Virus record (IMG/VR): IMGVR_UViG_3300021387_000796
Coordinates: 128,001 to 192,000 of that record
Source: a virus
Lineage: Duplodnaviria; Caudoviricetes
Reading direction: 5' to 3' (one strand)
DNA length: 64,000 nucleotides
Of this stretch, positions 24,405 through 47,392 are shown one piece after another. Below the pieces are notes generated by a model. The model was not told the DNA's origin. It was given only the letters and a program-made list of their open reading frames with translations, and ran no database searches. A program made the position numbers and the translations under genes. The first letter of the stretch is position 1. Every line of letters begins with the position of its first letter.

Positions 24405-24752
24405 CGAATCAGCCACCACGCTTTTTCGCAAAGAACCCAAAAATAATTATAGTGGAAATGCTTTGGTTTTACAATCCTCATAAGGAAACACCAAAGGCTT
24501 ACATTTCACTACTAGAAGGTTTCCATCTTGTTCACCGTAAATATATTTTCGGTAGGATAGATTGGGTTGCCTACAAACTCTAAAAATTCCCACGCAACGT
24601 TCTCGTTTTAGGTGGCTGAACACTTGCGATTTCTTAACGATAACCACCGAGAAAGGTGACGGCATCACAACACTTTACCCCTTTATACGCCACTTATGGA
24701 CTAGCGTTTCCTTTCTCTTAGTCTCTCCCAACGAATTATTATTTCGCTGATA
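24405..24752 (-). ncRNA. candidate large structured ncRNA (~350 nt)
   Basis: nested stems TCAGCCACC/GGTGGCTGA, AACCCAA/TTGGGTT, TAGTGAAATG/CATTTCCACTA, CTTTGGT/ACCAAAG, GAGAAAGG/CCTTTCTC; GC-richer; no credible ORF. Confidence 0.6.
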
Positions 24753-24756
24753 GTAG

Positions 24757-24839
24757 TAGGAGCGAAGGGAGTTGAACCCTTATCCACCAATTACTCGAAT
24801 TATAACGGACGGTTTATAAGACCGCTGAGATACGCTCCT
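24757..24839 (-). tRNA. D-arm-less tRNA-like RNA, anticodon UAU (Ile)
   Basis: AGGAGCG/CGCTCCT acceptor, GCGGT-CTTATAA-ACCGT arm, AAGGG-TTCAACT-CCCTT T arm, only 7 nt where the D arm should be. Confidence 0.7.
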
Positions 24840-24848
24840 ATATAAAAA

Positions 24849-24922
24849 TGATGCTAGGAAGAATCGAACTTCCGACTTTCTGCTTAGAAGGCAGATATTC
24901 TATCCAACTGAATTATAGCACC
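24849..24922 (-). tRNA. tRNA-Arg(UCU)
   Basis: GGTGCTA/TAGCATC, TCTGC-CTTCTAA-GCAGA, GGAAG-TTCGATT-CTTCC. Confidence 0.93.
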
Positions 24923-25039: not shown

Positions 25040-25068
25040 ACTATATCATAAAAAATAAAATTTGTCAA
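25040..25068 (-). promoter_or_regulatory. sigma70-like promoter of the tRNA-Leu/Arg/Ile-like/ncRNA/Gln transcript
   Basis: TTGACA-N17-TATAGT with TG extension. Confidence 0.8.
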
Positions 25069-25186
25069 GAAAACTTTCGCTTTTCAATCAAGGAACTTTG
25101 TCTTTAACCCAAACAGACTTGATTTACTCGACTTGCGGATTTGTTTTAATAATGTTCAAACAATACCACCCAAAAACACTCTTGTA

Positions 25187-25257
25187 TGGAGCATAGATTG
25201 ATTGAAAATCTACCTACTGATTAATCGTCAGTTGTTCTACCGTTGAACTAATGCTCC
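25187..25257 (-). tRNA. aberrant tRNA (Asn-like, loop CGAUUAA, anticodon AUU)
   Basis: GGAGCAT/ATGCTCC, GTTC/GAAC D stem, ACTGA/TCAGT, AGATT-TTCAATC-AATCT; G33 and U53-A61 are non-canonical. Confidence 0.7.
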
Positions 25258-25290
25258 AAAAAATTGTGGGTTATACTCATTTTTCACTAC

Positions 25291-25348
25291 AAGGTCTAGT
25301 TCTAATGATAGATTCGGATAAATGCGAAGAAGGTCTAGTTCTAATGAT
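25291..25348. repeat. 19-bp direct repeat, 2 copies, 20-nt spacer
   Basis: AAGGTCTAGTTCTAATGAT at 25291-25309 and 25330-25348. Confidence 0.85.
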
Positions 25349-25460
25349 TGAACTAGAAAAAGGCAAAATTTCTTCGCAAACCAAATCATATCAATCCCAC
25401 TTCCAACCTTTTCTTGATGATTTCCGTGTGGGGAAACCACTCATCAAGCGTGTTTCGTAT

Positions 25461-33328: not shown

Positions 33329-33868
33329 TCACCATTCATTTGAATTTTTCAATTGTTCAACCAACGCAACAAAATCATTATCGTTTAACAATTGATAAGA
33401 TGTAATAGGTGCTACAACAAAATTGTGATGATATACACCACTAGAAGCATTTCCTTTAGATATGCTATCTGTAATTTGTAGTTTTAATATTTGGAATGTA
33501 TCATCAAAGTTTCGAAGTTTTAATAATATTACTGAATCTTTACGAATGTTATATTTTTTAATGTCTTCGTTTTTGAAATAAGCAGTAATTGGTAAAATGT
33601 CATACATATGTAGTACATTACTTTGCGTTTGAGACGATGAATTAGAATCCATAGTTGAAGTCGGAATATCATCGTCAGGAAAATCCATAAGTACATTAAC
33701 AAATCCGCTCAAATTTACACTTTGATATGTATTTTGATATTTATCGAACTCTACTTCTATAACGGCACACCTACATCTTGTTCCACTAATACCAATAAAG
33801 TTATCTTCCATTTTTCGATTAAATTTCCATAATTTTCTAGCAAGACAATCTTGTACCGTTCTAGCCAT
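33329..33868 (-). CDS. probable virion (head-closure-like) protein
   Basis: in a late operon; beta-rich; no firm motif. Confidence 0.5.
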   Translation of the reverse strand: MARTVQDCLARKLWKFNRKMEDNFIGISGTRCRCAVIEVEFDKYQNTYQSVNLSGFVNVLMDFPDDDIPTSTMDSNSSSQTQSNVLHMYDILPITAYFKNEDIKKYNIRKDSVILLKLRNFDDTFQILKLQITDSISKGNASSGVYHHNFVVAPITSYQLLNDNDFVALVEQLKNSNEW

Positions 33869-33881
33869 TTCGTTTCACCTA

Positions 33882-34019
33882 CTAGTCTAACATTCTTGTA
33901 ACATATGTGTTTTTTGAAGTTTCTACAATTTGTATTTTCTTTTCAGTTAAAGATTTTTTTTCATTTTCAAATTCTTCAACGCTCATAGTTTTACCATTTA
34001 ATGTAATCTGTTCTTTCAT
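33882..34019 (-). CDS. 45-aa hypothetical protein (not in ORF track)
   Basis: MKEQITLNGKTMSVEEFENEKKSLTEKKIQIVETSKNTYVTRMLD; GGAG SD. Confidence 0.65.
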   Translation of the reverse strand: MKEQITLNGKTMSVEEFENEKKSLTEKKIQIVETSKNTYVTRMLD

Positions 34020-34050
34020 TTCTACATTCTCCATATTATTCCTCCATTAA

Positions 34051-34971
34051 TTACATGTATAAAGTGTGCTGATTAATGACAGTAGTTCCTTTCTTTTCAC
34101 CCACTTGTGGTGAAAAACCCATATAATTATTATTGTAAATATTTGTAATATTGTTTCCCATAATACCAAAACTTGGAGTAATGGATTGAGTATATTTAAA
34201 TTCTGCAATAACTAATCCATTCGAAGGATAATTTGGAGCATGTGCCAAACCAGAGGTTGCTTCGTCACCCATAATATATCGTACCGAGCCATCATTCATC
34301 AATACGGCAATATCGATTCTAACTTTTCCAGAAGTTATACTAAGATTAATTTTATGATAATCTGTATCAGTTTCTGTCAATATGATTGTTTCTTCATTAT
34401 TTTTTTCCACCAACACACCATTTATTATGGCTTTACCTTTTCCAACAACAAAGCCGAATTCACTCGTTCGATTTTCAATTGGTGTAACATTAAAACTTGG
34501 TAAACTTGAATTATAAGAAGAATAATAATAGTCGTTATATTTTGAAGATGGACACCACGTTTTTCTAGTATAATCAAATTCTGTGCTTAAAGTGCCACCT
34601 TGGAAAACGGCTCGTCCTAAAATAATCGGATGATTCATCGAACTAATATCACTCAATGATTTTGTTTCAAAACTTACATAATTATTTACGGATTGACTCC
34701 AATTAAAACTTGCTACAACGAAAGGTTTTTGGCTATCCACCGCCATCACAAATGATTCTCTAGTTTCAACATGAACAATTATATTACCATCACCAATCAA
34801 CAATTGCATTTCATCAACTTGTATTGTAGAATCGCCTGATTTTGTTAAAAGACCACCTGAAATAACACCCTCAGGTAACACTCCGCACAATAATTTATTA
34901 AAACCTTCAGCAGTACCTTCTTGTTGATATCTGAATGTAATTAATTGGTCTCCTGTATTAACACTTGCCAT
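34051..34971 (-). CDS. baseplate/tail-fibre-associated structural protein
   Basis: late motif at 35004; G.AIING..RIDI..G..AP pattern. Confidence 0.6.
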   Translation of the reverse strand: MASVNTGDQLITFRYQQEGTAEGFNKLLCGVLPEGVISGGLLTKSGDSTIQVDEMQLLIGDGNIIVHVETRESFVMAVDSQKPFVVASFNWSQSVNNYVSFETKSLSDISSMNHPIILGRAVFQGGTLSTEFDYTRKTWCPSSKYNDYYYSSYNSSLPSFNVTPIENRTSEFGFVVGKGKAIINGVLVEKNNEETIILTETDTDYHKINLSITSGKVRIDIAVLMNDGSVRYIMGDEATSGLAHAPNYPSNGLVIAEFKYTQSITPSFGIMGNNITNIYNNNYMGFSPQVGEKKGTTVINQHTLYM

Positions 34972-35059
34972 ATAAATCTCCAAATAAAAAATATTTTCTT
35001 ATTAAATAGTTATATTTTTTTATATCACAAATTAAAATTAAAAGCAACTATATTCTTAA

Positions 35060-35296
35060 ATGGATTTTGGTATTAAAAAAATAATAAAGAAAAAATGTTT
35101 CAAAAATGGAAAAATTTTAATGGTTGAATTAGAAGGCAAAAATTTATTCTCCATTCTAGTTTTCAATAAAGAGAATCAATTATTAGAATCCTTCTGTCGT
35201 TGTTGTTTTGATGATTCATTAAAAAAAGATATTCTAAGTATCATGAGAAAAAAATATAAAGAAAAAATAAATCAATATTTTTATAATTTCACTTGA
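35060..35296 (+). CDS. hypothetical protein
   Basis: ATG shortly after CAACTAT motif. Confidence 0.5.
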   Translation: MDFGIKKIIKKKCFKNGKILMVELEGKNLFSILVFNKENQLLESFCRCCFDDSLKKDILSIMRKKYKEKINQYFYNFT

Positions 35297-45772: not shown

Positions 45773-47392
45773 TTAGTTTACGCCATTAACTTTATTTTCG
45801 TCTTCATTTACAGTAGTAATGACAACATTTGTATTAAGATACAGTCCAATAAACGATGATGCGTTTTTCAATGCAGATGTTTCGACAAGTGTAGGGTCTA
45901 CAACTTTATCAAAGAGATTTTCATCCCATTCCATTGTTGCAAAATTATAACCACTCTTCTCACCGTCAGACTGCGTAAGTGTCTTTTCAACAATTACATC
46001 ATCGGAAACACCGCTATTCTTTGCTAACTGACGAATAGGTGCTTCGAGAGCGTCTTTTACAATGTTGAATCCGCAAATCTGTGAATCAGTGAGTTCCTTT
46101 GGAGGTTCAAGTTCTGATGATACTTTGAGTAGAGTTACACCACCACCGAGAACAATACCCTCTTTAACAGAAGCCTTTACCGAACAGATTGTATCTTCAA
46201 TGCGGTCTTTAAGTTCCTTCATTTCAACATCATTATCGGCATAAACACGAAGTACACAAATTCCACCACTCAAAGATGCGATTCGTTTTTTCATGTTTTC
46301 CTTTTTCTTCTCTACGGTTTCAACTGACATTTCTGATTTGATGTGTTCGATTCTTTCATCAAGTGAAGATTTTTCACATTTTCCACCGACAATAAGAGTA
46401 TTGTCTTTCGATACTACTACCTTTTCGGCACTACCCAAATCTGACATTTCCATTTTAGAAAATGATTTACCAAGTGATTCCGAGATGAATGAACCGCCTG
46501 TAAGAACGGCGATATCAGTGAGAATTTCCTTTCTCATTTCACCGAACTCTGGACCTTTCACCGCACATACTTGAAGTGTTTTATTTACTGCATTAAACAC
46601 AAGAGCAGGCATTGTCTGTCCACCATAACCGTTTGCGATAATAAGAAGTGAACGACCTTCGTTGGCAATCTGATTTAGAATTTTTCCAAGAATATTGAGA
46701 TTGTTGATTTCTTCATCAGTTATGAGGATGTAAGGATTCTTAAATTCACAAGTCATTCTATCAGTATTATTTACAAAATACTGACTTTCATAACCATTGT
46801 TGAACTGCATTCCTTCTACAAACTCAAGATAAGTTTCTGTTTTTGGAGAATCTTCTACTGTAAGAATTCCATCTTCACCAATCTGAGAATATGCTTCTGA
46901 AACAAGTTTACCAATTTTTTCATCGTTGTTTGAAGCGATTGTAGCAATATTCAAAATATCTGTTGTGTTACGAATTTCTTTTGATTTTGATTTAATTTTT
47001 TCAATTGCAAGTTTTGTAGCACAATCAATTCCTTTTTTCAAATCGGATACTTTCACGCCACTAGCAATATATTTTCGACCATTTTCAAGCATGGAACGAC
47101 CAAGAACAGAAGCCGTAGTTGTACCATCCCCTACTTTAGCACTTTCACTTGCAATATTTTTTACAAGATTTCCACCAATATTTTGATACTGATTTTTAAG
47201 TTTTCCAACCGCTTTTCCGATAGAAACTCCGTCTTTAGTTACAGTATAAGAATTTCCACTAAATCCCTCGATTAATGCAGTTTTTCCGTTAGGACCTAAC
47301 GAACTAGCAATGGCATCTGCTACAATTTTAGCACCTTTATAAATTTCATCTTGTGCTTCTTTACCGAATTTTACTTCGTTATAAATTGACAT
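45773..47392 (-). CDS. groEL: chaperonin GroEL
   Basis: SLGPNG, TKDGVS, GDGTTT, EGMQF, K.PEFG, GGG; no GGM tail. Confidence 0.97.
   Translation of the reverse strand: MSIYNEVKFGKEAQDEIYKGAKIVADAIASSLGPNGKTALIEGFSGNSYTVTKDGVSIGKAVGKLKNQYQNIGGNLVKNIASESAKVGDGTTTASVLGRSMLENGRKYIASGVKVSDLKKGIDCATKLAIEKIKSKSKEIRNTTDILNIATIASNNDEKIGKLVSEAYSQIGEDGILTVEDSPKTETYLEFVEGMQFNNGYESQYFVNNTDRMTCEFKNPYILITDEEINNLNILGKILNQIANEGRSLLIIANGYGGQTMPALVFNAVNKTLQVCAVKGPEFGEMRKEILTDIAVLTGGSFISESLGKSFSKMEMSDLGSAEKVVVSKDNTLIVGGKCEKSSLDERIEHIKSEMSVETVEKKKENMKKRIASLSGGICVLRVYADNDVEMKELKDRIEDTICSVKASVKEGIVLGGGVTLLKVSSELEPPKELTDSQICGFNIVKDALEAPIRQLAKNSGVSDDVIVEKTLTQSDGEKSGYNFATMEWDENLFDKVVDPTLVETSALKNASSFIGLYLNTNVVITTVNEDENKVNGVN

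Follow-up and report, generated by a model that had tools for sequence, protein, structure and literature searches.

A likely tRNA-Ile(UAU) on a rewired, non-cloverleaf core in a phage tRNA operon, and its relatives

Can a tRNA that lacks a hairpin between its acceptor and anticodon stems still possess the parts of a D arm, and can it serve as a tRNA? This question is raised by an 83-nucleotide (nt) gene on the minus strand of a 64,000-nt stretch of phage DNA (Duplodnaviria; Caudoviricetes; positions 128,001 to 192,000 of the IMG/VR record IMGVR_UViG_3300021387_000796), hereafter the window, in which it occupies positions 24757..24839. To our knowledge, bacterial cytoplasmic tRNAs are taught as four-armed cloverleaves, the known exceptions being mitochondrial truncations and variants of the 8/4 and 9/3 kinds, in which the order of the parts is kept. 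An earlier note had described the gene as D-arm-less, with a D-loop motif displaced to the 3' side, and had offered two functions for it, an AUA decoder or a decoy for nucleases or synthetases. Our analysis argues that the element is likely a working tRNA-Ile(UAU) for AUA codons, built on a rewired non-cloverleaf core. The gene and its conservation, a D-stem-like helix, signatures linked to the isotype, and the genomic surroundings and codon usage of the phage are direct observations, from which we infer the processing, charging, decoding and L-shaped fold of the RNA.

Read 5' to 3' from RNA nt 1 (window 24839) to nt 83 (window 24757), the transcript begins with the 5' strand of the acceptor stem, AGGAGCG (RNA 1-7; 24833..24839), whose partner is found at window 24758-24764. 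It continues with UAU (RNA 8-10; 24830..24832), where U8 and A9 are read as equivalents of the canonical positions, the triplet CUC (RNA 11-13; 24827..24829) and A14 (24826), and enters the anticodon arm (24809..24825), composed of the stem GCGGU/ACCGU (RNA 15-19 with 27-31) and the loop CUUAUAA (RNA 20-26), within which the anticodon UAU occupies 24816-24818. Then follow the linker CCGUUAUAAUU (RNA 32-42; 24798..24808), C43 with the triplet GAG (RNA 44-46; both in 24794..24797), the D-loop-like junction strand UAAUUGG-UGGAU (RNA 47-58; 24782..24793), the T arm AAGGG-UUCAACU-CCCUU (RNA 59-75; 24765..24781), and finally the 3' strand of the acceptor stem, CGCUCCU (RNA 76-82), with the discriminator A83 at window 24757 (together 24757..24764). 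The acceptor stem (7 base pairs, bp), the anticodon stem (5 bp) and the T stem (5 bp) are all perfectly paired, and U33 and a purine at position 37 are present. The seven nucleotides UAUCUCA (RNA 8-14) are all that separates the acceptor from the anticodon stem, leaving no D hairpin, and the 27-nt 'variable' region (RNA 32-58) holds GAGUAAUUGG, that is, CGAG-UAAUUGG. All that the earlier note had read in the gene, including the perfect acceptor stem and T arm and the loop CUUAUAA, is present, with the correction that the gene lies on the minus strand.

Relatives of the gene were collected by pattern scans of IMG/VR and GTDB genomes, filtered by a covariance model that was built on the three undisputed helices alone. 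This model separates sharply, with scores of 53-100 bits for the family and at most 35 bits for ordinary tRNAs; the window gene obtains 80.5 bits with the family covariance model (R1). We defined the superfamily by U8-A9-U-C, followed by 3-4 nt that pair across the anticodon arm with the 3-4 nt preceding U-A-A-N-U-G-G; the window gene carries UAUC-UC(A) and (C)GAG-UAAUUGG. The first scans yielded 67 unique members, mostly with the anticodon UCU, one with CCU and a few with UAU. Further unique sets comprise 49 UAU genes, 21 CAU genes and about 22 members on cellular or metagenome-assembled genome (MAG) contigs; these sets overlap, as some of the 67 first-found members recur among the 49 UAU genes. 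Altogether, about 150 unique relatives were gathered from IMG/VR contigs and phage genomes. A blastn search against phage genomes returned about 150 records, among them Felix O1 and the Vequintavirinae, with approximately 79% identity over 70 nt; their sequences have the same layout, with the anticodon UCU.

Across the family alignment, all seven pairs of the acceptor stem covary (99.4% of cells paired), as do four of the five pairs of the T stem (98.8% of cells paired), and the anticodon stem covaries across the family as well. The family is strictly of the 7/5 type, with both the 7-bp acceptor and the 5-bp T stem supported by covariation, and its linker ranges from 2 to about 15 nt. When the 5' half of the pattern was left free, UAUC was found in all members but one, a divergent second gene on the phage contig L157, which has UAUG. 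This contig carries two rewired genes 270 nt apart (L157:12999-13077 and L157:13348-13426), one with the anticodon CCU and the other, divergent one with UCU, UAUG in place of UAUC and a different linker. On the cellular side, three isolates of the Hyphomicrobiales, Devosia elaeis (L300), Gellertiella hungarica (L331) and Aquamicrobium zhengzhouense (L351), possess a rewired tRNA-Arg(UCU) with a 2-nt linker on chromosomal contigs. Among the cellular pattern matches, including those in Streptococcus, 57 of 80 loci are not tRNA-like and were discarded.

Do the two displaced triplets pair with each other? Since the first scans had required CUC and GAG, we rescanned with patterns that leave both free before counting covariation. 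In a structure-blind MAFFT alignment of 66 sequences, pair 12:47 occurs as UA (44 sequences), AU (12) or GC (10), and pair 13:46 as CG (53), GC (6), UA (6) or GU (1), with zero unpaired cells in both. Among 110 unique sequences obtained by anchor-based extraction, both variable pairs of this helix, hereafter helix H, are formed in 100%; shuffled partners were paired in 56% of cases on average and 66% at maximum, and none of 5000 shuffles reached the observed value. At least 14 combinations were recorded in these 110 sequences, never unpaired, namely CUC/GAG, CAC/GUG, CGC/GCG, CUU/AAG, CAG/CUG, CAU/AUG, CGG/CCG, CCC/GGG, CCG/CGG, CGU/ACG, CGA/UCG, CCA/UGG, CUG/CAG and CCU/AGG, and ACC/GGU occurs in phage Jay2Jay, outside this set. 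A fourth pair (14:45) is formed in about a quarter of the members; in the rest, it is for the most part A·C or C·A. We also considered a 'hinge' in which mismatches would be traded between this pair and the first pair of the anticodon stem, and rejected it because the two showed no association (Fisher p = 1.0).

The pairing of CUC with GAG claimed in the earlier note is thus real, as it covaries without exception in 110 unique homologues. Its companion claim, that the GG of the D loop comes from the 3' side, gains support from the same covariation and from the layout that the homologues keep. The label 'D-arm-less' needs correction: the D hairpin is indeed absent, and the name is a misnomer because an equivalent of the D stem exists.

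The gene in the window belongs to an 83-nt subtype with four more members (L082, L135, L180 and L183) and an 82-nt relative (L182); L082 is identical to L319, a copy on a contig of a 'Ca. Fimenecus' MAG. Compensatory changes are seen within this small group too, with G29:C41 replaced by U:A in the anticodon stem of L082 and L135, helix H present as CAG/UUG in L183 and as CGUC/GACG in L182, and compensatory change in the T stem. Over about 85 nt, the other carriers of the subtype are 84-92% identical to the window; their flanks have no DNA or protein similarity to it. The gene alone is common to the window and these carriers, forming an island of conservation in unrelated flanks. The maximum identity of the subtype is 0.83 to Arg genes vs 0.82 to other Ile genes, and these values, being about equal, favour neither direction of an Arg-to-Ile switch.

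Which amino acid would such a scaffold carry? The family anticodons are UCU and CCU (Arg) and UAU, GAU and CAU (Ile). The pattern scans found no rewired gene whose anticodon has G or U at position 35, and therefore, within the reach of these patterns, the scaffold is confined to Arg (NCU) and Ile (NAU). Two features of the tRNA body follow the anticodon. The base after the GG is A in 60 of 60 UCU genes and U in 48 of 49 UAU genes, and the discriminator is A73 in all 49 UAU genes, whereas it is G, A or U in UCU genes. The bacterial determinants for Arg are A20, C35, U/G36 and A/G73, and those for Ile are A73, U20 (as D20), A35, U36, A37 and A38 (PMC9976931, Table 1). Thus, the change from C35 to A35 accompanies exactly the two body changes that both synthetases require, and we equate the base after the GG with position 20 because it tracks the anticodon as these determinants predict. 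In this analysis the Ile subclass was defined by the anticodon NAU, U after the GG and A73, and the window gene has UAU, U54 and A83 at these places. The CCA end is encoded straight after N73 in 18 of 49 UAU genes and 16 of 32 Arg genes, as against a chance expectation of about 1 in 64.

Genes with GAU, an unambiguous Ile anticodon, and with CAU, of the lysidine type, share their 77-nt body with many UAU genes. The GAU form is present in two groups of cultured phages, the crAss-like Kehishuvirus 'tikkala' and the Streptomyces phage Jay2Jay with its relatives; searches for the UAU form in cultured phages found none and gave GAU forms only. Both GAU genes are unannotated (L355:1196-1272 in 'tikkala', OQ198717; L356:1195-1271 in Jay2Jay, KM652554). 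In helix H of Jay2Jay, A:U takes the place of a C:G pair that does not vary otherwise, and the gene directly follows a coding sequence (CDS) annotated as 'nucleotidyltransferase'. The 21 unique CAU genes (L365-L397, e.g., L370:3502-3578) share the 77-nt Ile-type body, with U after the GG and A73. A lysidine-dependent tRNA-Ile2 is the probable identity of these genes, in which case TilS would be able to act on the rewired scaffold.

The genomic context is consistent with a translational role. The source record (218,066 bp, 29% G+C, estimated to be 92% complete) has just six tRNA genes, all on the minus strand and in one cluster: Leu(CAA), an odd 'Asn(AUU)', Leu(UAA), Arg(UCU), the rewired Ile(UAU) and Gln(UUG). 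Over 221 long open reading frames of the phage, AUA amounts to 21.3 per 1000 codons and 27% of Ile codons. The remaining tRNAs of the cluster fit its preferred A/U-rich codons likewise, with AGA making up 56% of Arg codons, UUA and UUG together 63% of Leu codons, CAA 73% of Gln codons and AAU 79% of Asn codons. There is no other tRNA-Ile in the tRNA set of the phage and no second rewired gene in the window, and neither TilS nor a CAU tRNA is encoded by the phage. A weak PP-loop match that was considered as a TilS candidate proved to be a PAPS-reductase/DUF3440 protein (443 amino acids, L272:1411-2742, at about 33827-35158 of the record contig and outside the window).

How could such an RNA be organized? 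In the proposed architecture, CUC (RNA 11-13) would pair with GAG (RNA 44-46) across the whole anticodon arm as helix H. Since the 5' strand of helix H runs straight into the anticodon stem, the two can stack end-on as one continuous helix with the linker bulged out between them, just as the D stem and the anticodon stem stack as one helix in a canonical tRNA. The triplets CUC and GAG are the proposed equivalents of the D-stem strands 23-25 and 10-12, respectively. Ahead of the 5' strand of helix H stands U8-A9, which is invariant. At one end of helix H, U10 opposite U47 is proposed to form a non-Watson-Crick layer resembling 22:13, as judged from our mapping onto canonical positions; at the other end, A14 opposite C43 would occupy the place of the 26·44 pair as a mismatch. 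The strand leaving the 3' side of helix H, UAAUUGG-U, would correspond to the D-loop sequence, in which A48 and A49 stand for A14 and R15 and, after two variable bases, G52 and G53 for G18 and G19, with U54 (window 24786) taking position 20. It would run as a junction strand to the T stem, so that its GG could reach the T loop at the elbow and dock there. Written in canonical positions, the parts would run [1-9][22-43][linker][10-21][~45-48][49-76], i.e., the segment 10-21, which comprises the 5' D strand and the D loop, would be relocated behind the anticodon arm. Three backbone reconnections (9 to 22, 44 to 10 and 21 to 45) would suffice to convert a cloverleaf into the rewired RNA.

As for its function, the gene would be transcribed within the only tRNA operon of the phage, and the RNA would be excised by RNase P and 3' nucleases and receive its CCA from the host enzyme. 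Charging by the host isoleucyl-tRNA synthetase (IleRS) would rely on A73, A35, U36, A37, A38 and the U at the position-20 equivalent, and the product would supply AUA decoding to an AT-rich phage that lacks any other tRNA-Ile and TilS. Between the two functions offered in the earlier note, the AUA decoder has the better, if circumstantial, support, from A73 in 49 of 49 UAU genes, U at the position-20 equivalent in 48 of 49, encoded CCA in 18 of 49, the GAU/CAU/UAU series, the frequent use of AUA by the phage and its lack of another tRNA-Ile and of TilS.

Comparison with canonical tRNA-Ile (RF00005), of which a GAU form, a lysidine-CAU form (tRNA-Ile2) and a rare UAU form exist, brings out how much has been retained. 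The rewired gene shares with it the 7-bp acceptor, the 5-bp T stem, the UUCRANY loop, the 5-bp anticodon stem with its 7-nt loop, U33, A37 and A38, U8 and A9, an A14/R15-like AA, G18G19, U20, A73 and the location in a tRNA operon. It differs in that the D-stem strands flank the anticodon arm, with the D loop open as a junction strand; because of the former, the rewired RNA is a three-way junction rather than a four-way cloverleaf.

In the mitochondria of nematodes, mites and others, D-armless tRNAs have a short unpaired connector and no G18G19, and they depend on adapted mitochondrial factors. The rewired RNA resembles them in the lack of a D hairpin in a cloverleaf drawing and in the trouble it causes to gene finders. 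Unlike them, it keeps a D stem, a D-loop motif and the T-loop partner, and at 83 nt it is full-sized. The likeness to mitochondrial tRNAs drawn in the earlier note therefore fails, since both the D stem and the GG motif persist, with helix H and UAANUGG conserved, and are merely re-threaded. Rearranged gene order is also known from the circularly permuted tRNA genes of Cyanidioschyzon merolae, whose transcripts are circularised and re-cut to a normal cloverleaf. Both cases involve tRNA segments in non-standard gene order, although nothing suggests re-joining here and the mature rewired RNA would itself carry the rearranged order.

A close counterpart is the rewired tRNA-Arg(UCU) of Felix O1, wV8, phi92, PBECO4, rV5-like phages and many others, which has the same UAUC, helix H, G-UAANUGG and T arm. 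It is about 80% identical to the window gene and has the same anticodon loop except for position 35. The Arg form differs in its anticodon (UCU), the A after the GG, its discriminator (G, A or U, as opposed to always A), its 7-nt linker (11 nt in the window) and its T loop UUCGANY (as opposed to UUCAANU).

Mycoplasma mobile provides a precedent for the anticodon: its tRNA-Ile has a genomic UAU on a tRNA-Ile body, and like that tRNA the window gene would read AUA without lysidine (PMC3575796). This rare form has a normal cloverleaf and works with an adapted IleRS (Arg865-type) and a ribosome that rejects AUG (PMC3575796). The allo-tRNAs, in turn, are non-standard bacterial and phage tRNAs found by metagenome mining, some with unusual anticodons, in which the 12-bp branch is split 8/4 or 9/3 between acceptor and T stem (Mukai et al., PMC5389517). 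They retain the D arm and have a longer acceptor, a shorter T stem and a long variable arm, whereas the rewired family has no variable-arm hairpin. Membership in this group was rejected, since the family is 7/5 and not 8/4 or 9/3.

Several points weigh against a working tRNA-Ile(UAU) on such a core. The invariance of UAUC and GUAANUGG was partly imposed by the search patterns. RNAalifold predicts the three classic helices only and not helix H, and for the window RNA the fold with helix H has -18.5 kcal/mol vs -20.0 kcal/mol without it and -22.0 kcal/mol for the minimum free energy (MFE) fold, which contains a variable-region hairpin; helix H is thus 1.5 kcal/mol worse than its omission and 3.5 kcal/mol worse than the MFE. 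As the energy models do not favour helix H, the case for it rests on covariation and not on energy. The window gene encodes no CCA, the bases next after A83 being CUA, and lacks the minor Ile determinants of E. coli, C4:G69 and C29:G41. Furthermore, E. coli IleRS poorly charges a tRNA-Ile whose anticodon is UAU (Taniguchi et al., PMC3575796), and on E. coli ribosomes a UAU anticodon that is unmodified reads not only AUA but also AUG (PMC3575796). Function would therefore depend on the enzyme and the ribosome of the host.

The poor charging by E. coli-type IleRS (PMC3575796) could speak for a tRNA mimic outside translation, such as a decoy or sponge for defence nucleases, modifying enzymes or the synthetase, or a processing signal of the operon. 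An odd core could be more easily tolerated by a binding protein than by the ribosome, and the gene sits amid other uncatalogued structured RNAs of the same operon. We consider this role unlikely, as neither the identity signatures nor the encoded CCA sits well with it: a decoy needs no A73 in 49 of 49 genes, no isotype-matched base at position 20, no CCA encoded in about 40% of genes, and no series of GAU, CAU and UAU beside UCU and CCU that obeys the rules of two synthetases. By compensatory change the acceptor stem evolves as freely as that of a genuine tRNA, and Felix O1 has no other tRNA for AGA.

Alternatively, the RNA may be a working tRNA of another or dual identity, charged with Ile and reading both AUA and AUG, mischarged by the methionyl- or arginyl-tRNA synthetase (MetRS or ArgRS), or used for deliberate recoding. 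The reading of AUG by an unmodified UAU anticodon on E. coli ribosomes (PMC3575796) would fit this scenario, as would the resemblance of the window subtype to Arg genes (maximum 0.83), which equals that to other Ile genes (0.82). We regard it as quite improbable, since both main Arg determinants are altered (A20 to U and C35 to A) and the body signatures are common to the unambiguous GAU genes.

A third reading concerns the fold. The RNA might be a truly D-armless tRNA with a long variable-arm hairpin, in which CCGUUAU would pair with GUAA-UGG and both CUC and GAG would be unpaired. This hairpin is found in the MFE fold of the window RNA (-22.0 kcal/mol), and in the Arg clade the segments CGUUA and UAA.UG, which could pair, are conserved. 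In the 66 aligned sequences, however, it has zero compensatory changes, and pair 41:50 shows 7 mismatches where it varies. The change of U35 to G in the closest relatives of the window gene breaks the hairpin pair U35:A49, and the hairpin cannot form in L096, which wholly lacks its 5' strand yet retains CGAG-UAAGUGGA. It would bury G18 and G19, and it is incompatible with helix H, which covaries. This leaves the D-armless fold with very little to recommend it. For the same reasons, namely that the candidate variable-arm hairpin shows no compensatory changes, breaks in relatives and is absent in L096, a class II tRNA was rejected as well. Finally, a decayed pseudogene that has lost its D arm, to which the missing ARAGORN call and the marginal Rfam score (36.3 bits) might point, is refuted as far as sequence data allow, because the layout is retained in hundreds of phage sequences, whose four helices show compensatory changes, an identity of 84-92% within unrelated flanks contradicts decay, and the relatives, in which the earlier note would have taken a normal D arm as the mark of a pseudogene, have none, since they keep the split, rewired layout.

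The preferred reading, a tRNA-Ile(UAU) on a rewired core, may be extended to a broader and more tentative claim. According to it, this would be a natural tRNA that serves bacterial translation without a cloverleaf, in which the segment 10-21 has moved, the molecule still folds into an L, IleRS charges it (and ArgRS its sister form), AUA is read free of lysidine and the rewiring is adaptive. As an adaptation, the rewiring might serve, for example, to escape host tRNA-cleaving defences or unwanted modification, while two class Ia synthetases, both of which use position 20, could still read the rewired form. Taken with all its parts, we find this claim doubtful.

Why have these genes been overlooked? 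ARAGORN gave no call for the window gene and, in all, missed 10 of 10 family genes tested. The Rfam tRNA model (RF00005) assigns the window gene 36.3 bits, compared with a gathering score of 29, by skipping the D arm (15 model positions vs 4 bases), and it caught 10 of 17 other family members tested, at 30-39 bits. The statement that gene finders miss the family is therefore only partly true. In public records, the Arg form is present in 256 phage genomes; among the 60 records listed, it is mostly unannotated or covered by a spurious CDS, and in a few it is labelled 'tRNA' or 'tRNA-OTHER'. Felix O1 over-uses AGA, yet tRNAscan-SE found no tRNA-Arg(UCU) in this phage (PMC3185647); a rewired UCU gene is located inside its tRNA cluster. 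The paper on Sf14 lists an 'Arg_TCT' gene with no remark on its structure (PMC12482277); judging from its syntenic position, it may be the rewired Arg form. Searches of full-text literature, whose scope did not include subscription-only papers, found no description of the rewired layout.

If the rewired RNAs are charged and decode, an L shape can be built from a different order of strands, and the rearranged order is acceptable to RNase P, the CCA-adding enzyme, two synthetases, EF-Tu and the ribosome alike; phages would then have spread this design widely. The 'missing' AGA and AUA tRNAs of well-studied phages such as Felix O1 would be accounted for, and phage annotation pipelines would need correction, because ARAGORN misses rewired genes and Infernal scores them marginally. 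The design would also offer a naturally orthogonal-looking scaffold for tRNA engineering. The question is directly testable, since laboratory phages of E. coli and Salmonella carry the Arg form, and cultured phages of Streptomyces and Bacteroides the Ile(GAU) form.

Within the tRNA operon of the window, an ordinary cloverleaf tRNA-Arg(UCU) is located at 24849..24922 on the minus strand (Rfam tRNA, 69.7 bits), 9 nt upstream of the rewired gene. Two near-consensus sigma-70 promoters were recognized, one before the cluster and one before its second half. The promoter-like element TTGACA-17-TATAGT at 25040..25068 (minus strand), upstream of tRNA-Leu(UAA), has 11 of 12 consensus matches and a TG extension. 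Judging from this consensus match, Leu(UAA), Arg(UCU) and the rewired Ile(UAU) are probably under its control, together with a structured spacer and Gln(UUG). At 24405-24752 and 25260-25460 (minus strand), the operon contains long non-coding spacers. The 'Asn(AUU)' gene called by ARAGORN at 25186-25258 (minus strand; Rfam 55.6 bits) has the loop CGAUUAA, i.e., G33 in place of the normally universal U, A34 and the discriminator A. AAU is the commonest Asn codon of the phage (79%, 59 per 1000), and both the anticodon and G33 of this tRNA are unusual.

Elsewhere in the window, a full-length GroEL-type chaperonin is encoded at 45776-47392 on the minus strand (phrog_5725, 419 bits); its identity to GroEL proteins in cultured phage records does not exceed 41%, which makes it uninformative on host or lineage. 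On other phage contigs, group I introns were identified near rewired genes at L096:7116-7338 (93.6 bits) and L367:981-1183 (65.3 bits), and a partial transfer-messenger RNA is located near a rewired tRNA gene at L196:1-200 (51.3 bits).

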